This document shows, in pieces, positions 1 to 10,972 of a stretch of 10,972 nt of DNA. The stretch comes from Candidatus Micrarchaeota archaeon (lineage in GTDB: Archaea > Micrarchaeota > Micrarchaeia > Norongarragalinales > SBBD01). The notes under the pieces were generated by a model, which saw only the letters and a list, made by a program, of their open reading frames with translations, was not told the origin of the DNA and did no database searches. Location of the stretch: NCBI GenBank assembly GCA_038046605.1, contig JBBSVW010000057.1:1-10972 (forward strand). The letters are read 5' to 3'. How positions within the stretch are numbered: position 1 is the stretch's first letter; every line of letters starts with the position of its first letter. The position numbers were made by a program, and so were the translations under genes.

Positions 1-1017
1 CATCATCCCGGATATGTCCAATCCGACGTACTGGAAATAATATGAAACCGCAAGCACTGCCGGGGATACGCCAAGGAGCAGGAAGGAATATTTGGAGATT
101 TTTTCCCCAATTGCAAGCCAGAGCAGGATGCAAAGGGTTGCGGATGAAAATGCAAGCAGGAGGGAATTGAAAATAGGGGTTAGGGGAATTGGCGCAAAAT
201 TCAGCCTAAGCAGGGGGCCAAAAAGGACCGCAAGAAAAATCACAAGGTAAGGGATGGAAAGCAAAAAGGCGAAGCGGCTTTTTTTCCTTGGAATTGCCGA
301 TAAATGCCAGGGCACGCTTTTCCATGCAAATGCAACCGGAATGAATATTGCCATTTGCAGGAACGCAAGGAAAATCCCCTTTTGAATATTGAAATCCCTA
401 AAGAAACTCCGGAAAATCTCAACTTCCAAAGTGGAATTGGAAATGCCCCCGAAAATCAGCGGGATGGAAAAACTGGTAAACGAAAAAGCAAATACGATGG
501 CAAACGAGGAGAGGATTGCCGGAAGAAGGGATGGAAGGGTAATTCGCGCAAAAGATTGACGAGGGCTTGCGCCAAGGGTCCTTGAAGCGCCTACAAGCGA
601 TGAATTGGAAAGCCATTTTGCGCCAATAATCCTTGCTGCCAGGGGGAAATTATATAATGAATGCGCAAGGATTATCCCCTCAAGAGTGTAGAGGGAAAAA
701 GGCAAATCGAACAACCCGTTTGCGCCAAATAGGGCAACTAGTGAAAGGATCATGGCGGGCTGGGGAAGCACAAGGGGGATTAGTGAGAGGGCGGAGAGGA
801 GTTTTGCTAGGGGCGAGCGCTTGGTCAGAATGTAGGCGAGTGGAAACCCAAGCAATATCGAAAAAATTGCGCTAATGGATGCCTGGAAAATGTTCCGCGC
901 TATTAGGGAATAGGGGATTTGGAAAATTGCGAGGTTGAAAAAAAGCAGGGCTAGTGGAAACAAAAGGAAAATTGCAAAAAAGCCAATTCCAATCAATTCG
1001 AAAGCGCTTCTTCCCAT
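1..1017 (-). CDS. thiP: Thiamine ABC transporter permease (ThiP/FbpB-type), truncated by left window edge
   Basis: Not in the ORF track because it runs off the edge. Hand translation from ATG at 1017 gives MGRSAFELIGIGFFAIFLLFPL...NIFQASISAIFSILLGFPLAY...LIPLVLP...GIILAHSLYNFPLAARII...GASRTLGASPRQSFARITLPSLLP...FSFTSFSIPLIFGG...TLEV. These match ThiP-type TM segments and an EAA-like loop. The frame still reads as membrane protein at position 1. The start overlaps the thiB stop. Confidence 0.9.
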   Translation of the reverse strand, partial: MGRSAFELIGIGFFAIFLLFPLALLFFNLAIFQIPYSLIARNIFQASISAIFSILLGFPLAYILTKRSPLAKLLSALSLIPLVLPQPAMILSLVALFGANGLFDLPFSLYTLEGIILAHSLYNFPLAARIIGAKWLSNSSLVGASRTLGASPRQSFARITLPSLLPAILSSFAIVFAFSFTSFSIPLIFGGISNSTLEVEIFRSFFRDFNIQKGIFLAFLQMAIFIPVAFAWKSVPWHLSAIPRKKSRFAFLLSIPYLVIFLAVLFGPLLRLNFAPIPLTPIFNSLLLAFSSATLCILLWLAIGEKISKYSFLLLGVSPAVLAVSYYFQYVGLDISGMM

Positions 1018-2138
1018 ATTTTTTCCCTTTTTTCATCATCAACAATTGTGTAATTGGAAGGGATGGGAATTTGCGCCAATCTGAAGGCATCGGGAATGGG
1101 GGTTTTTGCCACGGAAGGATACATGAAATTCCCAAGGGGGATTTCCATCTGGGCATTGGCGGAAAGCATGAAATCGATGAATTCTTCGGCAAGTTTGCGG
1201 TTTTTTGATCCCTTGACAATCGAAACGAATTCGACCTGCCTTGGAAGGGATTGGAATAATGCGGCTTTGTAGCGCGTAGTGTTTTCATTCACAATGTGGT
1301 ATGCCGGGGAGGTGGAATAACTAAGCACAATTGGCACTTCGCCCTGCAAAAAGAGGTTGTAGCCTTCGGTCCAGCCAGGAGTGATTGTCAATAGGTTCGG
1401 CTTTAGCCGAGAAAGATAATCACCGGCCTTATCGCCATATTCGCTTGCAACCCAATGCAGAAAAACCTTGCCAGGCGAGGAAGTGCGCGCATCCTCAATT
1501 ATTATTTTTTTGCGGTATTCGGGCAACGTGAGATCTTCAAGGGATTTTGGCGGCGAGCCTACTTTATTCGAGTCATAGACAAAGGCGAGGTAGCCCCAGT
1601 CGAAGGGGATGAAGCGGTAATCTGGCAGATTTGTATTTGGGAGTTTGGGAAAAAGAAAAGGATCGATGGAGTCAATCGCATTTGGCCCATATGGCTCAAA
1701 TAGGGCCCCATCAATTGCTTTTTGCATGAAAGTGTTGTCGGTGCCAAGGGCGATATCCGCCATGGGATTTTCCTTCTCGAAAATAAGCTGTGAAATGAAC
1801 GCGCCCACATCGCCTTTTGCAACCACTTTCAATTTGCAGCCGCACTTCCCCTCGAATTTGGGGAATATTTTTGGGCCCAATCCCCATTCCGATGTGATGC
1901 CATCATAGGTGTAAATTACAAGCTCGCGGATTGGGAGGGGAGGCGAATTTGCAGCAAGGGGGGAGGGCGATGAAAATATCGCCGGGGAAACAGTTGGCAT
2001 ATTTCGGGGATCGCCATTCCCTCCAACCACCACAATATCCACATTACGGACAGAGGGTTTTTCGGTTATTTTTGTTATTAACAAGGCTCCCGCTAAGAGT
2101 ATCAGGGATATTATGATGAATTTTGAAATTTCCCCCAT
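993..2138 (-). CDS. thiB: Thiamine ABC transporter substrate-binding protein (ThiB/TbpA), N-terminal TM anchor plus Pro/Ser linker
   Basis: Motifs LVIYTYDG..SEWGLGPKIFPKFE..CGC, ADIALGTDN, PFDWGYLAFVYD, DARTSSPG, GWTEGYNLFLQGE, VLSYSTSPAYH, RQVE and NFMYP are characteristic of ThiB. ATG at 2138 is preferred over TTG at 2147. Confidence 0.93.
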   Translation of the reverse strand: MGEISKFIIISLILLAGALLITKITEKPSVRNVDIVVVGGNGDPRNMPTVSPAIFSSPSPLAANSPPLPIRELVIYTYDGITSEWGLGPKIFPKFEGKCGCKLKVVAKGDVGAFISQLIFEKENPMADIALGTDNTFMQKAIDGALFEPYGPNAIDSIDPFLFPKLPNTNLPDYRFIPFDWGYLAFVYDSNKVGSPPKSLEDLTLPEYRKKIIIEDARTSSPGKVFLHWVASEYGDKAGDYLSRLKPNLLTITPGWTEGYNLFLQGEVPIVLSYSTSPAYHIVNENTTRYKAALFQSLPRQVEFVSIVKGSKNRKLAEEFIDFMLSANAQMEIPLGNFMYPSVAKTPIPDAFRLAQIPIPSNYTIVDDEKREKIWEEALSN

Positions 2139-2209
2139 CGCCTTCAACTGATCCCGATATGAATTGGGCAGGTTAAAAGCGGCTTCCCGGTTTATAAAGC
2201 ATATTTATA
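2139..2209 (-). promoter_or_regulatory. thiBP promoter region: TATA box plus inverted repeat adjacent to the start codon
   Basis: TTTATAAA at 2191-2198 and a second TATA-like TATAAATA (minus strand) at 2202-2209. Imperfect inverted repeat CGCCTTCAACTG (2139-2150) / CAGGTTAAAAGCG (2169-2181). Confidence 0.45.
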
Positions 2210-3188
2210 CCGGAAGGGATTTTTCGAAAAACTTTTGCAATAATAGGGTGTGTGCGAATGCCTTATCCTGGAATGGCTTAGTGTGGAAGTAGTGCTTTTC
2301 CCCAATGGGATGGATTGGCAGGAAATCATTTGCAATCCAATTCGCAATCAAGGAATTGTATGGAATCCAGAATTCTTTTATGGACGAGGAAATGTTTTCC
2401 CTATCGCCTTCATCAAATCCCTTGAAATATGAATTCAGGAAGGCAATTGCCTGCGGCTTATTGATGAAATACGGCCTTGCCCAGGAGGAGTTGAAGGGGG
2501 AGAGGATGTTGCAAACATCAAGCGCTGCGCAAGAATACATCGCCCAGCCCCAATCTATCAAATAGGGGCGGTTTTTCGAGATGAGGATGTTTTCGGATGT
2601 GAGGTCGTTGTGGATGAGGCACTGATAATTGCCGGTTGATGGCTCTGATTTTTCCAGGCGGGCCTTTGCCAGTTTGGCAAGCTTATTGATTGGGGAATTT
2701 TGGGGGGAACGTACGGCATCGATTTGCGCCTTTTTTTCCAGGTAGGTTTCCACATCCTCGACGCGGTATTGGCAAATTGACTTTTTCCCCCTGGTTTTGT
2801 GGTGAAGCCTGTGAAGAAGGCGGGCAACAGAAGGCAGATCCTTTGAATAATCCAAATCGGATCCATCGACAAATTCCTGCACGCTGTAGGGGAATTTCCT
2901 TCCGGATATTGTTATTGAGCCAAATGAGAGGAACCTGGGCGAAATGTCAAGGCTGGAAATTTTTTCCGCCAGCTTTTTTTCATATCCCGCCTGGATGAAA
3001 ACCGTGGGCTTGCTTGCGGGCGCAACGGCGAATTTTACCAAAAGCGATTTGGCGCTCGATTCGACCCTAAAGGCGATGTTTGCAATGCCCGCCCGAAGGA
3101 AGGAGGCACTTGCGCTTGCACCAAAATAAGGCAGGGCTTGCGCATGCTTTTGAAGCAGTGGAATTAGCCTGCTCTTTTTTTGCTCCAT
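2205..3188 (-). CDS. APH/choline-ethanolamine kinase family phosphotransferase (candidate thiamine kinase)
   Basis: Brenner motif LIHNDLTSENIL, Mg-binding LIDWGWA, hinge VQEFVDG, LLHRLH and an N-lobe LLVK lysine. Co-oriented directly upstream of thiB. Confidence 0.82.
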   Translation of the reverse strand: MEQKKSRLIPLLQKHAQALPYFGASASASFLRAGIANIAFRVESSAKSLLVKFAVAPASKPTVFIQAGYEKKLAEKISSLDISPRFLSFGSITISGRKFPYSVQEFVDGSDLDYSKDLPSVARLLHRLHHKTRGKKSICQYRVEDVETYLEKKAQIDAVRSPQNSPINKLAKLAKARLEKSEPSTGNYQCLIHNDLTSENILISKNRPYLIDWGWAMYSCAALDVCNILSPFNSSWARPYFINKPQAIAFLNSYFKGFDEGDRENISSSIKEFWIPYNSLIANWIANDFLPIHPIGEKHYFHTKPFQDKAFAHTLLLQKFFEKSLPV

Positions 3189-3260
3189 AAATATGATTTT
3201 GAAAATCGGTGTGGAAATAAGGCGCGAAACGGGGAAGGCAAAAGCGGGGCAACGCTAAAA

Positions 3261-3827
3261 CTAAAGCGCGCGGAGCATTTCGCTCCTGGCATTTTCAATT
3301 TGCCCCCGGATCATATCCTGCTTGTGCTTAAGGCCGCCAACTAGCGAACCCGAATACTTTAGCACCATCAGGTTATCGTAAATCTCGTTCATCTTGTCGA
3401 AATAGTACTGGGCGTCCTCCTTTTTGCCATCGCGAAGCGATAGCTGCAAGGCGCGCCTTAATTCCCCAACAACATCGGCAAGGCCAGATAGCCATGGCTG
3501 GAATTCGACTTCCAGCTCCTCATAATCGGGGATTTCCCTGCGCTTCAAAATGGCGGAAAGGACCTTTATTTCAACTATTTCCTGGTAGCATTGCTGGGAA
3601 ATATGGCCAAAATCAGAATCGTGCTTTTTAAGCTCGCCAATTTTGCCATCAATCTGCTTGACGAGGGCTTCCATTTCCTCGTATTCGCGCATGTGGATGC
3701 TTTTTATTGCGCGCGCGCAGTCGCGGATGGTTTCCCTCGAAAGGCGAAGGACAACGTCCTGGTTTTTTTCGCGCTCATCAAGTATTTTGGTAATTTTTGA
3801 AATCGCAGCTTTCAGCTTAGCATCCAT
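3261..3827 (-). CDS. Translin/Trax (C3PO-like) family RNA-binding nuclease
   Basis: LRLSRETIRDCARAIKSIH, YQEIVE and WLSGLADVVGELRR match the archaeal translin signature. 188 aa, helical-looking. SD GGTGA lies 7 nt before the ATG. Confidence 0.88.
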   Translation of the reverse strand: MDAKLKAAISKITKILDEREKNQDVVLRLSRETIRDCARAIKSIHMREYEEMEALVKQIDGKIGELKKHDSDFGHISQQCYQEIVEIKVLSAILKRREIPDYEELEVEFQPWLSGLADVVGELRRALQLSLRDGKKEDAQYYFDKMNEIYDNLMVLKYSGSLVGGLKHKQDMIRGQIENARSEMLRAL

Positions 3828-3954
3828 AATTTATTCACCTAAAAAAGCATTTGATTGCAGCATTGGAAATGCGGCATTTTCGCCCAGTTAACCAATGTGT
3901 CAGTCTCCGTGATTGATGGAATATTTTAATAACCTGAGATTAATAACCGTTTTG

Positions 3955-4653
3955 ATGGATATGAAGGCAATCGTAATTTCCCTTGGTGGATCGCTGCTTT
4001 TCAAGGAGGGTAAATTCGACAGGGAGCATGCTGCAGGACTAGCCAAAGTATTTATGGAAATTGCGGCAAAAGGGCAAAAACTGGCAATAATCACCGGCGG
4101 GGGCATGCGGGCAAGGGAATATGCCAATGCCGCAAGGAAAAAATACGGGAGCGAATTCTTCGCGGATAGGGAGGCAATAAAGGCGACGCGTGAAAATGCC
4201 ATGGAGATGATCAAATTAATAGGAAAGGCGTCTTATGGGAAGGCCATGATGGCTTTCGATGACATCGATGCCGCTTTCAAAACCCACAATATTGCGCTGG
4301 GAGGGGGGATGCTGGAAGGACTTACAACCGATGCCGTTTCCGTGCTATTTGCAGAAAAGCTAGGGGCAAGGTGCGTTGTGAATCTTGGGGATACCGATGG
4401 CATTTACACGGCGGATCCAAAAAAGGACAGGAATGCTAAAAGGCTGGAGATAATGACGCACGGCGAATTGGTTGATTTGGCAGTGAAAAACGATTCAAGA
4501 AGGGCAGGGACGCATTTCGTGTTTGACCTGGTGGCAGCAAAGCTTGCGGCAAGGAGCAATATCGAACTGCGGTTCGTGAATGGGAAGGATTTAATTTCCT
4601 TGAAGGGAGCGATTAGTGGAAATCATTTCGATGGAACAAGAGTGAGAGATTAA
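3955..4653 (+). CDS. pyrH: UMP kinase (uridylate kinase), archaeal type
   Basis: AIVISLGGS, IITGGGMRAREY, ATRENA, GLTTDAVSVLFAE, DGIYTADPKKD and AGTHFVFDLVAAKLAARS. Start placed at ATG 3955 (alternative 3961) rather than 3913 because TTTTAATA at 3924-3931 predicts a near-leaderless transcript there. Confidence 0.95.
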   Translation: MDMKAIVISLGGSLLFKEGKFDREHAAGLAKVFMEIAAKGQKLAIITGGGMRAREYANAARKKYGSEFFADREAIKATRENAMEMIKLIGKASYGKAMMAFDDIDAAFKTHNIALGGGMLEGLTTDAVSVLFAEKLGARCVVNLGDTDGIYTADPKKDRNAKRLEIMTHGELVDLAVKNDSRRAGTHFVFDLVAAKLAARSNIELRFVNGKDLISLKGAISGNHFDGTRVRD

Positions 4654-5372
4654 TGGCATCAAACAACCATAATTTAGCGGATGTATTGCGCGAGTTTTTC
4701 CCAAAAACAACTATCCCAAAAGGGATAAAAATGCTGCTTCTTGAAAAAACCAGGGAGGCACATCCAATAACTGGACAAATTAATCCGCATTCGGTTATTT
4801 CCGATCCATTGATGCTTCGCTCATTCCTAACCCATGCAAGAAAAAAAGGGGCGCTCAATTATATGGGCATATCAGATGGCCCAACAAAGGGAAAAATGCT
4901 GTTAACATTTACCCAGGGAATATCTCAAATAGACACAAACAAGGCAAAATTCCTGGTAAGCTTGCTCAAGCAGCCACACGATGTCAAAACATTCGAGCAA
5001 TCTTTTGATAAACTGCTGCCAGTTCAGAAATTACAGGAAATCAAGACGCTTGCAAAGGGAAGGATAAAACGAGTGGAATTCCACAACAACCGGGAGAGGA
5101 ACTTTAGGGTCACCGATCCCCGTGTTCTCCACGCCCTTTTATCCGAAAGAAATGCAAGATTTGGATTAAACCACCTAGTAATTGACAGATTCGATGAAAG
5201 CACCAGCACCCTCCATCTCTCTACGCCTTGGGATCTTGACAAGGTTCCAACTGAAAAAGGCAAGGTGAAAGCGCCAGGGGACCTTGCCGCCTTTAATGAG
5301 GAAGGAGCGGAATTTCTTTCCACCCACTTCAGCCTTGCAACAACAGCCTCTAGGCACAAACTTCGAGAATGA
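4653..5372 (+). CDS. Hypothetical protein with an apparent internal two-fold repeat
   Basis: 239-aa ORF coupled to pyrH by a TAATG stop/start overlap. The two halves align (ISDPLMLRSFL/VTDPRVLHALL, GALNYMGI/FGLNHLVI). No family recognised. Confidence 0.7.
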   Translation: MASNNHNLADVLREFFPKTTIPKGIKMLLLEKTREAHPITGQINPHSVISDPLMLRSFLTHARKKGALNYMGISDGPTKGKMLLTFTQGISQIDTNKAKFLVSLLKQPHDVKTFEQSFDKLLPVQKLQEIKTLAKGRIKRVEFHNNRERNFRVTDPRVLHALLSERNARFGLNHLVIDRFDESTSTLHLSTPWDLDKVPTEKGKVKAPGDLAAFNEEGAEFLSTHFSLATTASRHKLRE

Positions 5373-5796
5373 TATGCCTGCCCCCTTGGATTGCAAGCCT
5401 CTTGATGCATGTTGATTCGCCATTAGGAGGAAGGGAAGATATTGGGATATTTTGCCCATCGCCTAATAAAATACTAATTTCGAATTTGCTATCCTTTTCC
5501 AAGCCAAAAAAGGTAGTTACGGATTTAATTGGAATTTTTTTGAATTCAATCAAATCTTCATTTGATATCACATTGGCATCAAGATATCCTTTGCTGCAAT
5601 CCGCCAAGCCAAAATCATTTGCACAGGAGGAAAGGAGCATGTCCGCCAAAAAAATTGCATCCCGCTCCCTTTCGATTTGGGAAAGCTGGTGGGATAGGGA
5701 ATTGGCTTGGAGGAAAAAAGCGCCAATTAGGAGAATTAGGGTAAAGGAGCTAAGCAGCAGGGAAATCAGGAAATCAATGGAAAGGAGGGCGCGCAT
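5350..5796 (-). CDS. Putative class III signal peptide (archaeal pilin-like) membrane protein
   Basis: The N-terminus MRA|LLSIDFLISLLLSSFTLILLIGAFF resembles a prepilin cleavage motif (basic residue, G/A, acidic +5, hydrophobic stretch). Four Cys. The 3' end overlaps the convergent ORF by 23 nt. Confidence 0.62.
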   Translation of the reverse strand: MRALLSIDFLISLLLSSFTLILLIGAFFLQANSLSHQLSQIERERDAIFLADMLLSSCANDFGLADCSKGYLDANVISNEDLIEFKKIPIKSVTTFFGLEKDSKFEISILLGDGQNIPISSLPPNGESTCIKRLAIQGGRHIILEVCA

Positions 5797-5840
5797 AATA
5801 GACCAACTTCTTCCACGACTATTACGAAATGAACAATTAG

Positions 5841-5895
5841 CTTTAAATAGCTAAAACCATATAGTAAAAGCTTACAGTTCGTAAAAAAATGGTGA
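5841..5895 (+). promoter_or_regulatory. TATA box and Shine-Dalgarno for the 5902 gene
   Basis: TTTAAATA at 5842-5849 in a divergent intergenic region. GGTGA at 5891-5895, 6 nt before ATG 5902. Confidence 0.5.
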
Positions 5896-5901
5896 TTTCG
5901 C

Positions 5902-6732
5902 ATGTACGGTGGCCCGGTCGCTGGCAGAAGCACTCATCTTGAGAGCTCAATTCCATTGATTCTGATAATCATACTTGCAATATTTGTTGCGGGTCAACTA
6001 GGGGTAATCAATCTAGGCGACATACCAGGAGTTGGTTCGATCTTTGGCGGAGGAAATCAAATCAAGGTCGGTGTTGTAGGAACGCCTTCCCAGGGAATTA
6101 GATCCTATCTTGCAAGCACCGATGCACAGTTCCAAAAAATCAAGCTTTCGGGCATTTTGAGGGCGGAATCACTAAAGGCTTCCGGAGCGCTAAAAACATT
6201 TGACGTGATCATCCTCCAAGGGCAGCCTGTTTGCGACCGCACGGCAAGGAGGATACTTACCGAATGGGTCAAGGGAGGAGGGAAACTAATAGTAGTCGGG
6301 GATGCATGCACCCGTGTTAATGATGACAATTCAGCCCTTGGCTGGAACATTGGTGTTGGGCTTCTTGGAGATATAATGCCAGTAACTGTTGGCGGGCTAA
6401 CACCGCAGGCAGAGCCAATTAGGAGAGGGTGCTCTTCTGGGACATTCACAACTGCAAATTTTGGCCACCCGATTGTAAATGGGATAAAGGATTACCCATT
6501 CACGGGGCAGACAATTGAAACCGTTCCAAACAACGGAAACATCATTGCATACATTGACTGCGGAACTTCCGGAAGAGGAAGCTCGGCTACAACGCCTGCA
6601 ATTGTTGAGAACTCGGCATTGCTTGGAGGAAAGACGGTGTACTTTGCGTATGATCCGGGCATTGCGGGCCTCACCAACGGAAGGGAACTGTTCATTAATA
6701 CCCTGAAGTACCTCAAGAGCCAGAAAGGCTGA
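5902..6732 (+). CDS. Membrane-anchored extracellular protein with class I glutamine-amidotransferase-like (DUF4350/ThuA-like) fold
   Basis: N-terminal TM IPLILIIILAIFVAG. FDVIILQG...ILTEWVKGGGKLIVVG, HPIVNGI and GKTVYFAYDPG...LFINTLKYL are typical of GATase-like domains. Good SD. Confidence 0.72.
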   Translation: MYGGPVAGRSTHLESSIPLILIIILAIFVAGQLGVINLGDIPGVGSIFGGGNQIKVGVVGTPSQGIRSYLASTDAQFQKIKLSGILRAESLKASGALKTFDVIILQGQPVCDRTARRILTEWVKGGGKLIVVGDACTRVNDDNSALGWNIGVGLLGDIMPVTVGGLTPQAEPIRRGCSSGTFTTANFGHPIVNGIKDYPFTGQTIETVPNNGNIIAYIDCGTSGRGSSATTPAIVENSALLGGKTVYFAYDPGIAGLTNGRELFINTLKYLKSQKG

Positions 6733-6872
6733 CACCCCATAGGGGGATATGCACTAGAATCTCAAAGATTCTAGGCATGCCCAGAATTTTCAATTCTGGA
6801 GCATCCCCCTACCACGTGCCACGCAGACCTTGAGTCTGCTGAGCCGCAAAATAGATTTTGCGGTCGCCGCCT
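6726..6872. other. Highly structured intergenic element (candidate ncRNA or palindromic repeat element)
   Basis: Stems: TAGGGGGAT(AT)GC 6740-6752 / GCATCCCCCTA 6801-6811, enclosing CTAGAATCT-CAA-AGATTCTAG (6754-6774) and CCAGAATT-TTC-AATTCTGG (6781-6799). Then GCAGAC-CTTGA-GTCTGC (6823-6839) and CCGCAAAAT-AG-ATTTTGCGG (6844-6863). Possible closing stem AGGCTGAC/GTCG-CC-GCCT. Confidence 0.6.
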
Positions 6873-6927
6873 ACTCCCTTATTTACTTTTTTATTTCCTA
6901 GAATAGTGCAACAAAGGGGTAATTGCC

Positions 6928-7371
6928 ATAATCATCGGAATCGATTCAGGCGCAACATTCGCTTTCGCAGCCCTTAATTTCAATGGCGAAGTAATTGCAT
7001 TGAGGAGTAGGAGGAATGCGAGGAGGGAGGATATTATCCGGATGCTTGAGCCATTCGAGCCGGTAATCATAGCTAGCGATACAAACCCGCCTTCAAAGCT
7101 GAGCAGATGGCTGGCAGCTGCATTCAAATGCAGGCTTTCTTTCCCATCAAAGTCGGCAACGCAAATGGAAAAAATAAGGATTACGCGAAATTGCAATTTC
7201 AAGAATGCGCATGAACGAGACGCACTTTCTGCTGCGCGCAAAGCGTATTTCAAGATCGCAAACAAGATGAGGCAGGTGGAGAGGCACTATCGGGAAGCAG
7301 CCAGTGCACTGGAAATTGATGCCACGAAAAAAATTGTTGCGAAGGGCACCCGCATGGCGGATATTTTATAA
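6928..7371 (+). CDS. DUF460 domain protein (RNase H-like fold), short form, apparent non-AUG start
   Basis: The frame of ORF 7000..7371 extends upstream as IIIGIDSGATFAFAALNFNGEV, then PVIIASDTNP and NAHERDALSAARKAY, which are DUF460 hallmarks. In-frame TAG at 6904. There is no ATG/GTG/TTG before the GID motif. SD-like GGGGT at 6916-6920. Confidence 0.8.
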   Translation: MIIGIDSGATFAFAALNFNGEVIALRSRRNARREDIIRMLEPFEPVIIASDTNPPSKLSRWLAAAFKCRLSFPSKSATQMEKIRITRNCNFKNAHERDALSAARKAYFKIANKMRQVERHYREAASALEIDATKKIVAKGTRMADIL

Positions 7372-7462
7372 AAGACAATTAACCGCATGGGGAATTGGGC
7401 AATAGCGCAGATTAATCGGTTCAAATAAGTTCCTCCCCGATCTGCCGCATAAGCCAAATGAT

Positions 7463-8254
7463 TTATCCTCCCCTAATTTCCTTCATCCTTATTTCCATAT
7501 CCGCTTTTAGCTTTTCTGCAATGAAGTTGTGGGAATAGTAATCGGCCTTTGCCGCAATTGTCAGTTTCGTTGAAAGTGCGCGCGCCATCCTGCCGCGCTG
7601 GTTTAGGGGGGCGGTTCCCACCATTGGCGATTGGAATATTACACCGTGCTTTGGCGGGCGGGTGCCGGAACGCAAATGCTTAAAGAGCGCTTTTTCCGCT
7701 CCAATCACTTGAATAGTGCTTGCAGGCATCTTTGCCATGTTCTCAAGGGAGCCTGCGGTTGAAATTAGGCGCGCTGCCAGCACGGGATCTGTCAGGTAGG
7801 TAATGTTTGGAAGGGTCTTTTGCGCTTCAATCCCAATATAGGCCTCGATATCCTTCCTAAGGAGGAATAATTCGTGGAGCCGCCTTGCAAATTGCATTAT
7901 TACCTTTGCATCATTTTCATCAAATGGCGCGCCCATGGATCCATCCACCTGCGAATGGATTGCATCTCCCCTCTCGGCGCCCAGAATTTCTTCAAGCTCC
8001 TTTTTGGCAAGCGATTCCTTGGAGCCGGCTTTGGAAAGAAGTTTCAGGAAAAGCTCGTCCCCGGCAACGGAGAGCTCGGGGAAATTTATCCTATACCATT
8101 CGGTCAGCCGCTCAAGCAGGAGCGATTTTGCCTTGTCAATATCATCAAGAGTGCGGATGGCTTGAATCAGGAGCAAATCCTTGCGGGTAAGCTCCCCCCT
8201 CACCTTTGCCTTTGCCTTCCGAATTATTTCCTCGCGCCGGATAATTGAAGCCAT
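7463..8254 (-). CDS. nop5: Box C/D sRNP core protein Nop5 (Nop56/58), lacking the N-terminal domain
   Basis: IQAIRTLDDIDK, ERLTEWY..NFPEL, LPNITYL, MPASTIQVIGAEKALF, PPKHGVIFQ and RGRMARALSTKLTIAAKADY identify the coiled-coil plus Nop domain. Confidence 0.93.
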   Translation of the reverse strand: MASIIRREEIIRKAKAKVRGELTRKDLLLIQAIRTLDDIDKAKSLLLERLTEWYRINFPELSVAGDELFLKLLSKAGSKESLAKKELEEILGAERGDAIHSQVDGSMGAPFDENDAKVIMQFARRLHELFLLRKDIEAYIGIEAQKTLPNITYLTDPVLAARLISTAGSLENMAKMPASTIQVIGAEKALFKHLRSGTRPPKHGVIFQSPMVGTAPLNQRGRMARALSTKLTIAAKADYYSHNFIAEKLKADMEIRMKEIRGG

Positions 8255-8431
8255 ATGGATCGCCCAAACCTTTAATCAGATTATCGGAATAGTATGCAAT
8301 CAAACGAATAAAAAGGCAGCGATGCGACCCAAAAAAAGGATATGCGGATTGTTAGAAAAAAAGAGTTCCGGACAAATAATAAAGGAGTGTAAAATCCTTA
8401 AAAATCATCCATTCAATTGGTGGCAATTTTC

Positions 8432-9730
8432 TCATATGAAATTCAAAACATGCTCACAAATGTACTTTGTAATCTTGCCGGTTTTGTCCTTTTCCTTCCT
8501 GACAACCATGCTTACGCGCTTATCTTTTATGTACTCTTCCTTTAGTTTGATTGCCAAATCAAGGGGAATGGCCGGAACGCCCCTTAGCTGCAATATTTCA
8601 AGCGCCTGCCTTCCTAAAAATTCCACGGGGACGTTTATCTCATCGCGTATGTCGGCAATGACAAACAGCGTGCGTTCATCGGATATGCCAGAATGGCCAA
8701 CCAATTCCCCAGGGCGGTTCCCAGAAAGGCGGCCATTACTTTGCGGATTTCCTATCCGCAATTCCACCTTGCTGATTTTGCCAAAGTAGGCTTTCACAAT
8801 TCCCCGAGTTCCAGCCTTCATGTCCAGAAGGCGCACCTGGGGCAGGGTATCTTTTAGCATCTCATCCTCTTCCATGAGATTATGGGTTTTTGGGGAGATG
8901 ATTAGGTTAGATGCCCAATTAAGGTGCAGTTCAAGGCCGCCCCCCGTTTTTTTGGCAAGCGCGTTTTCCGCCTTGATTGCAATTCCAGGGCGCAAAAGCC
9001 TCGATCCGTTTTCCGCATGGTAGTCCCATAGGACAATGGGGATTTGCCCGCCATCGCCATCTGCAATAAGCAGGTTTAGGACTTTTCCCATCCGTTTTTC
9101 CTTTGCAAACTCACGCAAATGCGAAATCTGCAGGATGCGGCCGAAAATATCCACCATTTGCCCGTCGGATAGGTCCTTGATTTTTGCAAGCTTTGATGGA
9201 ATTTGCGCAATAGGCCTGTAATAAATGCTTCCGATGAATTCCATTTGTTTTTGCTGCAAAATTTCGGTTGTCAAAGAGGAGTGGATTTCAAGGGGATTAT
9301 AGCTTTTTACCTGGCCGGATTTTATCACCAGCACATCATCACGTTCAAGGCCTACTCGCTCAAGCCAACGCACGTCCTCGTCCCACAAAACAAGGAGCGC
9401 CTTCCCGGAATTATCCGCAATCTCCACATTGCAAACCTTCCCTTTCCTTGCCGCCGTCTCGAAATCCTTGGGGGAATTGACATTCATCACGCGCACAATC
9501 GCATTGGCTTCAATTGGCTTTGAAAGCATTATGTCCGCCAAATTCAGGAATTGGGTATCATCGGGTTCATTAAGCGCAATTCCAAGCTCCTTTGCAATAA
9601 GGCGGGCGGCGGAATTGGAATCTATCAGCCCCTGGAATTCGGCCTTTTTTAGCTCTATATTGTGGAGCACCTCCTCTTCGGGAAGGAGGGTTTTTTCCAT
9701 TATCCTATCTAAAAGGAATTTGAATTCCAT
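8432..9730 (-). CDS. rpa: Replication protein A (archaeal ssDNA-binding protein, multi-OB-fold)
   Basis: N-terminal EFQGLIDSNSAARLIAKELGI domain. OB folds RKGKVCNVEIADNSGKALLVLWD and GKVLNLLIADGDGGQIPIVLWD, plus a third C-terminal OB-like region (IRDEINVPVEFLGRQALEIL). Confidence 0.85.
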   Translation of the reverse strand: MEFKFLLDRIMEKTLLPEEEVLHNIELKKAEFQGLIDSNSAARLIAKELGIALNEPDDTQFLNLADIMLSKPIEANAIVRVMNVNSPKDFETAARKGKVCNVEIADNSGKALLVLWDEDVRWLERVGLERDDVLVIKSGQVKSYNPLEIHSSLTTEILQQKQMEFIGSIYYRPIAQIPSKLAKIKDLSDGQMVDIFGRILQISHLREFAKEKRMGKVLNLLIADGDGGQIPIVLWDYHAENGSRLLRPGIAIKAENALAKKTGGGLELHLNWASNLIISPKTHNLMEEDEMLKDTLPQVRLLDMKAGTRGIVKAYFGKISKVELRIGNPQSNGRLSGNRPGELVGHSGISDERTLFVIADIRDEINVPVEFLGRQALEILQLRGVPAIPLDLAIKLKEEYIKDKRVSMVVRKEKDKTGKITKYICEHVLNFI

Positions 9731-9931
9731 ATCAATCTAACCAATGCAAAGGGGAATTGCGGGCATTTTAAGGCAAATTGGAAACACCCTAAATGGCAAC
9801 AACAACATCTAGCTTGCCCATTTCAGATTTCCATTTCAAGCCAAATCCATCAAGGCAATATGAATGCATGCCAATATTATTATTGGCGGATAGCCTTTTT
9901 ATTCTTGGGCAGCCAAATATTGCTCCTAAAC

Positions 9932-10094
9932 GGGGATGTGGGCCAACCTGGTAAGCCTTTCTTTCTTAGGAAGAAAGAAATCCTTGGGAAAGAAAGAACA
10001 TTTTCCAGAATGCTGGCAGCTTCGGGACCTAAATTCCAATGAGGAATGCGGGCGGGAAAAGCTGCTGATCCGAGTTCAAATCTCGGCATCCCCA
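9932..10094 (+). tRNA. tRNA-Pro(CGG) with two introns: 9954-10010 (position 21/22, 57 nt) and 10027-10059 (position 37/38, 33 nt)
   Basis: Exons 9932-9953, 10011-10026 and 10060-10094 join to a 73-nt cloverleaf. Acceptor GGGGATG/CATCCCC plus discriminator A; D-arm GGC..CCTGGTA|TGCT; anticodon arm GCAGC-TTCGGG|A-GCTGC; T-arm CCGAG-TTCAAAT-CTCGG. Intron 1 has a BHB-type central helix CTGG/CCAG with TA|A and AA|T bulges. CCA is not encoded. Confidence 0.92.
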
Positions 10095-10451
10095 TGGCTG
10101 CGACGGGGGAACCAAGGTTCCCCCTTGACCAGCCTGGTCGTTCCCCTTCCTAATTGTGATTCGCAAATCAAATCCGCTTTCTTTGGCGGCGCCACCGCCT
10201 TTCTTTCTGGAAAGAAAGGCAAGGCGTTCCAAATCTCGGCATCCCCATCTTTTCGTCGGGGGGCACATCCCCCCTTGAAAAAAGTTTTCGCTCCCCCCTT
10301 AATTACTTCTGCGAATCAGTTAAGTTTTTATTTCCAGCGGCGCCACCGCCGCTTTCTTTTGCAGGAAACCGGGCAGACAAAGTCTGCGCGGCCCCAAAGA
10401 CCAAAGGTCTTTGCGGAAGAAAGGGGCAAGGCGAGTGCTCGTTCCCCCCCC
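10077..10451 (+). repeat. Degenerate tandem repeat (~150-153 bp period) whose units start with the tRNA-Pro 3' end
   Basis: Exact 19-bp CAAATCTCGGCATCCCCAT at 10077-10095 and 10230-10248. GCGGCGCCACCGCC at 10186-10199 and 10337-10350. GGCAAGGCG at 10218-10226 and 10425-10433. CG(A/T)CGGGGG...CCCCCTTGA in both units. Confidence 0.8.
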
Positions 10452-10662
10452 TGGTTTGCCGCCTTACCCAGGTCTAATTTGCCCAATTAATTAATCATAT
10501 TTTTCCCCTTCCACGTCTCACCGCCATCCCCTTTAATTACTTTGCATTTTGCATTGCCAAATCCCGGCCCCATGCATCAAACTATTGCTAAATTTTAGTA
10601 ACTACCGATGAGTTGATATTATCAAAAGCTCAGTAATATTGTGGAAAAAAACTAAATACCAT

Positions 10663-10677
10663 CGAAAGATTTATATA
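10663..10677 (+). promoter_or_regulatory. BRE-TATA archaeal promoter for the downstream secreted-protein gene
   Basis: CGAAAG-A-TTTATATA is a near-consensus BRE plus TATA, about 90 nt upstream of ATG 10767. Confidence 0.6.
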
Positions 10678-10766
10678 CTAGGTTGCTTTTTAACATTTAA
10701 TTATTTTTTTCCGCGGAATCCACATTTTTACTGCGGCTTTATTACCCACCAAAAAAACAGAGCGTG

Positions 10767-10972
10767 ATGCAGATGAGAAGTAGTTACTTGTGGCTGGCAG
10801 GCTTAGCTGTAATTGTTCTTTTGATTCAATTCGCCCAATCCGCCCTAATCGTTACAGATAACCTGGGCGTAGCCACCCCATCCCAGAATGGCACCTCCTT
10901 TGACCTAAATGTTACATCCAGGATGCAGCAGTATGTGGGTTATTTTGGGAATGTGGTCACGATGGTTAGGCT
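10767..10972 (+). CDS. Secreted/cell-surface protein, N-terminal part (truncated by right edge)
   Basis: Hand translation MQMRSSYLWLAGLAVIVLLIQFAQSA-LIVTDNLGVATPSQNGTSFDLNVTSRMQQYVGYFGNVVTMVR shows a Sec signal peptide and N-glycosylation sequons NGT and NVT. Open to the window end. Alternative start at 10773. Confidence 0.75.
   Translation, partial: MQMRSSYLWLAGLAVIVLLIQFAQSALIVTDNLGVATPSQNGTSFDLNVTSRMQQYVGYFGNVVTMVR

Follow-up and report, generated by a model that had tools for sequence, protein, structure and literature searches.

A 134-nucleotide hairpin element that probably inserted behind a two-intron tRNA-Pro gene of Candidatus Micrarchaeota and duplicated the tRNA 3' end

We analysed a stretch of 10,972 nucleotides of a Candidatus Micrarchaeota archaeon (assembly GCA_038046605.1, contig JBBSVW010000057.1, positions 1 to 10,972, forward strand), referred to below as the window, in which a tRNA-Pro(CGG) gene is followed by two hairpin-rich, non-coding units joined by a second, exact copy of the tRNA 3' end. 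We consider it probable that this 19-nt repeat is a target-site duplication, produced when a 134-nt non-coding element (10096-10229) inserted one base past the tRNA gene, where an older element of its family was already present. The original prediction, made on the same DNA, had read the region as an array of minimal non-autonomous integrative elements. That idea holds insofar as the units are small non-coding inserted elements and the tRNA-end copy is the footprint of an insertion; it fails insofar as the units are not tandem copies and an integrase attachment (att) site is not the best model. The source genome, G000, is a metagenome bin of 1.64 Mb in 106 contigs, 90.7% complete. Relatives of the elements were sampled in 41 genomes, G000 counted; the genus comprises 7 genomes (G000 and the six labeled G001-G006), the family 11 and the order 68. 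The tRNA, its introns and the parts of both units in the window are described on the + strand, as is the Rfam match at 4948-5098.

The 19-mer CAAATCTCGGCATCCCCAT occurs exactly at 10077-10095 and 10230-10248, and these are its only two copies both in the window and in the whole genome; 0.01 matches would be expected by chance, and none of 200 shuffles reached two copies, which confirms the exact 19-bp tRNA-end copies predicted to start units at 10077 and 10230. The repeated sequence runs from C56 in the T loop through one base beyond the discriminator. Its proximal copy (10077..10095) lies within the working tRNA, and the distal copy (10230..10248) would mark the original place of the tRNA 3' end, still attached to its native trailer, as suggested by the alignment of filled and empty sites described below. 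Past the 19-mer the two units continue to align, as had been claimed, with 85% identity over 33 nt (alignment D1), 75% over 32 nt (D2, 10186-10217 against 10337-10368) and 70% over 27 nt (D3, 10120-10146 against 10270-10296); their modules stand in the same order with a regular spacing of 153, 151 and 150 nt. No third copy of the 19-mer exists in the window at up to three mismatches. The stretch 10434..10452 (AGTGCTCGTTCCCCCCCCT), most of which (10434-10451) had been taken for a decayed third start, is like the tail of module B and not like a decayed tRNA end (10436-10452 against 10135-10151, 82%, alignment D7). In G003 a decayed tRNA-end copy precedes the shared AGTGCTC, and the window is without that copy.

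The direction of the event is indicated by the orthologous loci. In locus L032 (record JAZDKC010000057.1, probably G002) and in G004, the same tRNA-Pro gene is followed directly by the first module of the window's unit 2, B2, and both loci lack exactly 153 nt, which corresponds to the 134-nt insert plus one 19-mer. Because these two congeners are shorter by exactly this length and have B2 directly behind the tRNA, unit 1 (B1, palindromic linker and C1; 10096-10229) appears to have been inserted recently, with a target duplication at its flanks, and unit 2 to be the older resident. The duplication was found at none of the five orthologous tRNA-Pro loci (G001, G003, G004, G005 and L032), and the trailers of G001, G003 and G005 differ again. 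Taken with B2 and its linker, the distal 19-mer matches the tRNA-Pro trailer of G002 at 96% identity and that of G004 at 83%. B1 and its linker match the tRNA-Lys(CUU) trailer of G002 at 88% identity; behind the B-linker-C composite of that trailer stand 12 nt copied from the end of the same tRNA. No difference separates the 19-mers, whereas B1 and B2 agree at only ~69%, and the two units are thus different members of one family rather than copies of each other. Since a duplication of 19 nt that ends at +1 has to begin at C56, the anchoring of the repeat in the T arm can be explained without an enzyme specific for the T loop. In the window tRNA, T arm and acceptor are contiguous (10070-10094), leaving the gene uninterrupted by unit 1, and the insertion is probably neutral for tRNA-Pro. 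Maturation of the tRNA would use the proximal copy, which is intact, and discard the trailer as waste.

Each unit is composed of a module B, a linker and a module C. We define B by outer arms a/a' around a G5-loop-C5 hairpin, followed by TTGA, a small hairpin that forms as an alternative, and the tail YTCCCC; the linker by the near-palindrome TGATTCGCRAATCA; and C by a polypyrimidine/polypurine hairpin, whose internal loop GCC-AYC-GC / GC-AA-GGC is conserved, and by the end GGCAAGGC. B1 occupies 10096..10146, with a GGCTG/CAGCC outer helix, the hairpin GGGGGAACC-AA-GGTTCCCCC, the alternative GACCA-GCC-TGGTC and the tail GTTCCCC. It is joined by the linker at 10147..10176 (near-palindrome TGATTCGCAAATCA at 10157-10170), the same that joins B and C in other copies, to C1 at 10177..10229, a short form that contains the internal loop and ends in GGCAAGGCG-TTC. 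B2, at 10249..10298, combines a CTTTT/AAAAG outer helix with a GGGGGG-CACAT-CCCCCC hairpin. It is followed at 10299..10433 by linker 2 (CTGCGAATCAG, 10310-10320) and a long module C, which comprises two extra inner hairpins and ends in GGGGCAAGGCG at 10423-10433; genome comparison places a counterpart of this linker and long C, 77.6% identical, at G000:C79:7836-7973.

The hairpins quoted in the original prediction are all present at the coordinates given there, and their conservation could be assessed in 16 distinct copies of B (alignment A1) and 21 copies of C (alignment A2). The compensatory change claimed for the GACCAG-type hairpin is borne out: 91% of the cells are paired, and two of its five pairs have changed on both sides. 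Covariation is also found in the outer helix of B, which had been missed, with 100% of the cells paired, both sides changed at five of five pairs, and 0 of 500 shuffles equal to it. This helix and the GACCA-type hairpin overlap by two bases and are therefore alternatives. The proposed CGCC-ACC-GCC[stem]GGC-AA-GGCG domain was recovered as the RNAalifold consensus of the C copies; the 'compensatory' counts in the T/C-rich stem of C stem partly from shifts of alignment register and are given little weight. Judged from these alignments, the structures are under constraint. Rfam returned no match in 10096-10451, the only two matches at E ≤1 in the window being elsewhere and far under gathering. K-turn and box C/D readings of B, of the linker and of the C internal loop were dropped by eye, as the needed G.A pairs are not conserved in A1 and A2.

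The family is genus-wide. A search of G000 with the units gave 29 matches, the query counted, and the most repeated part (10160-10225, within the linker and C1) has up to 16 other places in that genome. Each of the six other genus genomes holds 13-23 matches, four genomes of other genera of the family hold 1-5, and some match to the elements is found in 30 of the 41 relatives.

A long duplication is the general footprint of this family, at tRNA genes and at unrelated sites. Similar units, for which the original prediction had called for a search, were indeed found behind further tRNAs of G000, with duplications of 20 nt at tRNA-Leu(UAG) (contig C26), 19 nt at tRNA-Ala (C68), 18 nt at tRNA-Val(GAC) (C89) and 19 nt at a tRNA of no assigned identity (C9:23279-22966), where the distal copy is followed by an oligo-T run. 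Congeners show the footprint at tRNA-Ile (G001) and tRNA-Lys(UUU) (G002). The duplicated tRNA ends carry 1-2 genomic bases beyond the mature end and no CCA. A B-containing insert is also found at the 5' end of tRNA-Thr(UGU) (G000:C9:50879-51065); there, 24 nt are duplicated, and long duplications therefore protect 5' gene ends too.

Outside tRNA genes, one case is on contig C3 of G000, in which a 47-nt B lies between two copies of an 18-mer made of the last codons and the stop of a gene; the flank is single-copy and without an element in all four congeners that hold it (G003-G006). Further duplications concern a gene end (C73; 17 nt exact, ~27-30 nt with mismatches), a gene start (C18; 42 nt) and 19 nt of a promoter with a TATA-like box upstream of an epimerase-like gene (C32:2521-2722). 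The last of these explains the promoter-like AT boxes in front of many B copies, and B copies behind duplicated promoters might be transcribed from them. Exact duplications around the family measure 17-42 nt, or up to ~49 nt if one mismatch is allowed. At 2000 random positions, by comparison, the longest repeat was 15 nt, and repeats of at least 10 nt were seen at 61. A census of local direct repeats in G000 (≥14 nt, 40-450 nt apart) gave 87 pairs, and 37 of these bracket either the hairpin of B or an end motif of C. In 22 cases inspected by eye, one end of the insert is precise, lying 0-6 nt before GACAC or the a arm (the foot of the hairpin), and the other is variable, falling after the tail, inside the linker or after C. 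Two further loci were recorded in passing. At ~650-850 of G001 locus L079 (C73), the first ~30 nt from the ATG of the gene behind tRNA-Lys(UUU) are duplicated around a B-type element, and in the tRNA-Arg gene of G000 (C106:10685-10848, in locus L049, C106:10200-10950) the direct repeat GTGGTC stands on both sides of a D-loop-region intron with a C module in it, a further duplication of an exon edge where an intron begins and ends.

We propose that insertion takes place at the level of DNA, through target nicks at least 17 nt apart followed by gap filling. The enzyme would act in trans and would be encoded outside the assembly. The window contains no integrase, as originally stated, and its open reading frames (ORFs) in 10096-10433 have no Pfam match. 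In the 90.7% complete G000, no match was found to tyrosine recombinases (PF00589), reverse transcriptases, Cas1 or the TnpB zinc-ribbon domain. No reverse transcriptase was found in any of the 11 genomes of the family, and a retroposition reading is therefore left without an enzyme; the genomic bases past the mature end and the missing CCA in the duplicated tRNA ends count against it as well. The sole Y1_Tnp (IS200-like) gene of G000 is outside the window (C9:24252-24698, - strand), much richer in GC than the genome and flanked by GC hairpins of its own. A relation of the REP/RAYT kind was considered and dropped, since these flanking hairpins differ from B and C and the gene looks like a plain foreign IS200-like insertion. 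The only DDE_Tnp_1 ORFs, one of 286 aa and one of 292 aa, were discarded as a source, as the ends of their loci are unlike B or C. Within the genome bins, no autonomous transposon with the ends of the family was found, and no IS1634-family transposase was seen beyond these two short DDE_Tnp_1 ORFs, although the IS1634 family model itself was not searched.

The same modules occur inside tRNA genes of G000, where they form introns. Twenty loci are interrupted in the T loop and are recognised by ARAGORN once the insert is removed in silico; among them are Asn, Gln, Trp, Phe, Asp and Met, six identities that were not seen as a gene without interruption in this genome. At least 16 of the 20 inserts, which are ~54-199 nt long, are built of B and/or C modules in either orientation, as judged by eye. 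At the 3' junction these inserts have the pattern ...GGCAAGGC(N)-YGRA-AAT-[T stem], with YGRA, the four bases ahead of the final three of the intron, pairing to T54-57 at all four positions in 11 loci, at three in 6 and at fewer in 3 (17 of 20 at three or more). The result is a 3-4-3 bulge-helix-bulge, with a 4-bp helix and two 3-nt bulges and with cuts at 59/60, and RNAfold returns the same motif for pre-tRNA-Lys(UUU). EndA of G000 (388 aa) matches the ARMAN-2 three-unit enzyme 4FZ2 from end to end (E 3.5e-126). A 59/60 T-loop bulge-helix-bulge motif at the same position is described for ARMAN-2 in PMC3239211. At the distal junction of the window, TCCA-AAT, the TCCA pairs with TTCA at only two of four positions, being a copy of the T loop and not its complement; unit 1 is therefore not spliceable in this way, and has no need for splicing. 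An intermediate between the two situations may be represented by tRNA-Pro(UGG) on contig C27, which is interrupted and yet has the copy-type junction GGCG-TTCAAAT. The interruptions also affect what tRNA finders report in G000: ARAGORN with introns allowed gives 21 tRNAs and the Rfam tRNA model 15 above its cut-off, and at least 20 more emerge after removal of T-loop inserts.

A possible connection between such inserts and introns is offered by tRNA-Lys(UUU), which is followed by the same downstream gene in six genomes of the genus and occurs in three states. In G001, G004 and G005 the gene is intact and followed by B. In G002 (two contigs) it is intact too, and behind it come an insert that bears C, then 19 nt copied from the end of the gene itself, then B. 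In G003 (reversed C + C) and in G000 (B-linker-long C) it is interrupted in the T loop. The G000 gene has B directly behind TTCAAAT, which is where a loss of the proximal 13-14 nt would place it. The series suggests a route to the birth of an intron, whose order by parsimony would be from the intact gene, through insert and duplication, to loss of the proximal 13-14 nt.

The arrangement in the window would correspond to the first step in the gain of a T-loop (59/60) intron. In a second step, the proximal 3' piece would be lost and the distal junction tuned to a bulge-helix-bulge. The hairpins would be kept because the element needs them for moving, or for splicing inside a tRNA. We put forward only tentatively, with somewhat less than even confidence, the full proposal: that the window captures the first step in the birth of a tRNA intron, brought about by an undescribed class of archaeal hairpin elements, and that the duplication serves as a spare 3' exon, so that proximal loss yields a T-loop intron, which a broad-specificity EndA can remove after the distal junction has gained complementarity to TTCR. 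The same reserve applies to the traits of this class, namely the lack of a transposase and of terminal inverted repeats, a single precise end, and target duplications of 17-49 nt. Direct insertion into the T loop is also conceivable as the origin of the introns.

The alternative closest to the original prediction is an array of miniature elements moved by a tyrosine integrase, with an att core in the T loop and each element bringing its own copy of the tRNA 3' end, to give tRNA-E1-core-E2. Integrases do use tRNA ends in this genus, and B can border such an element. The tRNA-Val(GAC) gene of G001 carries an integrated element of 7.2 kb (positions 9616-16874 of locus L041, G001:C57:6000-25999), which may be a provirus or plasmid of Micrarchaeota; it is bracketed by an exact repeat of 24 nt, which spans G53 to +3, and encodes a PF00589 integrase, a Yip1-domain protein and the products of several ORFs without Pfam match. 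The start codon of the integrase lies a few bases past a complete B module, which thus stands between the tRNA end and the gene. In G003, and only there, a remnant of this integrase gene (its first 58 nt, 93% identity) is found behind tRNA-Pro and B, and ~400 nt beyond it the sequence continues with a linker, the long form of module C and a decayed copy of the tRNA end. PF00589 itself has 1-2 matches in 9 of the 11 family genomes. Against the att model, G000 has no PF00589 match, and the G001 integrase was found in 3 of the 68 genomes of the order, in G001 alone among the seven of the genus, and in none of the viral contigs. The right end of the G001 element has neither linker nor C, and neither B nor C was found at the borders of the integrase loci of G003, G006 and G008. 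Near-identical B-linker units stand behind different tRNAs, each repeating the end of its own tRNA. The 47-nt B on contig C3 has duplicated arbitrary host sequence, at a site empty in four congeners, and an att mechanism would require each such target to have been carried by the element beforehand. Insertion with a long stagger fits these non-tRNA duplications, 17-42 nt long, better than att recombination does, and we regard the integrase array as unlikely. Several points nevertheless count against our preferred reading of a long-stagger insertion. If one extra base is allowed, the window repeat reaches GTTC(C)AAAT and extends from G53 to +1, starting where the repeat of the G001 integrase element starts; in most tRNA contexts module C terminates with GCGTT; and an att-type origin is conceivable for the C-bearing inserts. 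No enzyme can be named in G000, given the null results for tyrosine recombinase, reverse transcriptase, Cas1 and TnpB zinc ribbon and the unrelated ends of the Y1 and DDE loci, and we know of no prokaryotic transposase family besides IS1634/IS1549 that makes such variable long duplications. The contig is metagenome-bin sequence, whose two novel junctions come from the assembly, and the order of states at tRNA-Lys(UUU) is a parsimony order.

The other suggestion of the original prediction, that B and C are small RNAs released from the trailer by tRNA-processing enzymes, can be extended to a distal copy that serves as a spare splicing exon. Such functions would account for the covarying helices and for the position of B, which in many tRNAs of the genus follows the discriminator without a gap; read-through transcription is likely, since there is no strong oligo-T run between the tRNA and unit 1. 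They are also compatible with insertion rather than opposed to it. Some 42 of 48 matches to a B-family regular expression, however, lie away from tRNAs, in either direction relative to neighbouring genes, and a crude ORF map, examined for a bias of B towards gene 3' ends, showed no clear bias of orientation; no Rfam family matches; and the distal junction of the window is unable to form the central helix of a bulge-helix-bulge. Taken as the explanation of the repeat, a functional trailer RNA is thus improbable. A local tandem duplication of the tRNA end, B, linker and C by unequal crossing-over or slippage, with later divergence and compensatory changes, would explain the regular spacing and the equal order of modules. 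It would leave unexplained why the 19-mers are 100% identical while the remainder is at ~69%, why C1 has the short form and C2 the long one, and why B2 with its linker matches at 96% a single-copy trailer of a congener while B1 groups with the trailers of another tRNA; we hold it to be very improbable. Still harder to credit is a chimeric join of two strain variants at their common tRNA end. A bin of 106 contigs invites the suspicion, but the same layout recurs here at four other tRNA 3' ends and one 5' end, as well as in independently assembled congeners, and assemblers normally join on words longer than 19 nt, which places an overlap of this size below the usual word length. Insertion with target duplication remains the reading that we prefer.

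The target itself is a two-intron archaeal tRNA of Candidatus Micrarchaeota (9932..10094). ARAGORN in default mode detects no tRNA in the window, and the gene emerges only with introns allowed. It has the acceptor GGGGATG/CATCCCC, the T arm CCGAG-TTCAAAT-CTCGG (10070-10086), the discriminator A at 10094 and the anticodon CGG at 10023-10025, and its identity is most likely Pro(CGG). Intron 1, of ~57 nt, interrupts the D-arm/position-26 region (9954..10010, boundaries approximate, by comparison with L026, L014 and L032) and contains a TTTCTTT/AAAGAAA hairpin; it is missing in the orthologues of G003, G004 and L032. Intron 2, of 33 nt, was placed by hand at the canonical 37/38 (10027..10059), where all tRNA-Pro orthologues have a 32-nt insert. 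With this placement CGG is obtained in every orthologue, whereas ARAGORN puts the intron at 35/36 and inconsistently calls one and the same orthologous gene Lys, Met or Leu. The Rfam tmRNA model pairs the acceptor and T arm of this tRNA over a 126-nt insert, at E 0.59 and far under gathering. Intron 1 (9954-10010) and the C modules (10177-10226 and 10337-10433) each show mirror-repeat TTTCTTT tracts, twice, followed by AAAGAAA. It is pure speculation that this layout of pyrimidine, loop, pyrimidine, loop and purine could in principle give an intramolecular triple helix.

The genes of the window near the tRNA are archaeal in character, with Pfam matches to a Nop5-type Nop domain, RPA-like OB folds, DUF460 and DUF2240. 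An ORF of 184 aa (9936-10490) overlaps the tRNA and the repeats, has no Pfam match and was treated as spurious. A weak Rfam match to RAGATH-8 at 4948-5098 (17.1 bits against a gathering threshold of 86.7, E 0.55) lies within coding sequence and is probably due to chance.

How archaeal tRNAs gain introns is described as debated in PMC3239211 and as open in a 2026 bioRxiv preprint. If true, the proposed route would account for the 59/60 hot spot and for at least 20 T-loop introns in one genus, and the genus itself supplies a testable orthologous series of intact gene, intact gene with element and duplicated 3' end, and T-loop intron of the same modules. Confirmation of the order of states would establish a mechanism by which introns are gained without reverse splicing or reverse transcription and which explains the preference for 59/60. 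Target duplications of 17-42 nt without a recognisable transposase are unusual for prokaryotes, and the element family corrupts the annotation of tRNAs in these genomes. Among the literature matches listed for archaeal tRNA introns and transposition, and for target duplications and transposable elements of the miniature inverted-repeat kind (MITEs), the elements are undescribed.

It is instructive to compare the window with known systems. Tyrosine-integrase elements that target tRNAs have an att core reaching from the T loop to the 3' end, with distinct sublocation classes. As in the window, a direct repeat of the 3' part of the tRNA brackets the insert and leaves the tRNA intact, and G001 provides a true example over the same span; the window cargo, in contrast, is 134 nt without a gene, G000 has no integrase, and the family is not confined to a cognate att site. 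The distal tandem repeats of E. coli tyrT, each with a short copy of the tRNA-Tyr 3' end, resemble the window in being tandem units with a tRNA-end copy behind a tRNA, but they are bacterial and their units are said to be near-identical, whereas those of the window are different members of a family. The window elements are short, non-coding, multi-copy, hairpin-rich and flanked by target duplications, as MITEs are; unlike MITEs, they lack terminal inverted repeats, have one precise and one variable end, and have no cognate autonomous transposon that we could find in the genome bins.

The only published parallel found for long duplications of variable length is IS1549/IS1634, for which PMC2266710 reports direct repeats of 8-514 bp, no mechanistic model, and a family preferentially found in Euryarchaeota. 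The window family shares this feature with its exact duplications of 17-42 nt, but no IS1634-like transposase was found, and the DDE ORFs of 286 and 292 aa have unrelated ends. The T-loop introns of ARMAN-2, removed by a three-unit epsilon-2 EndA, are alike in lineage, intron position and EndA relative, and the window modules form such introns elsewhere in G000; they differ in that the window tRNA is uninterrupted and its distal junction copies the T loop instead of forming an intron. They also differ in size, the ARMAN-2 pre-tRNA-Cys intron assayed in vitro having 13 nt (PMC3239211) against ~54-199 nt in G000. The same paper cites an idea of intron transposition in Thermoproteales. Another system to compare is the tRNA-Thr gene of Caldiarchaeum, where, according to Sugahara 2012 (PMC3293823), a 1.8-kb element that encodes a recombinase has left behind a second copy of a 5' tRNA fragment and is associated with a new intron. 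Common to both systems are a mobile element beside a tRNA gene, the duplication of a piece of that tRNA and a connection with a new intron; here, however, the elements measure 47-200 nt and carry no enzyme, the copied piece comes from the 3' end, and one orthologous gene can be observed in three states side by side.

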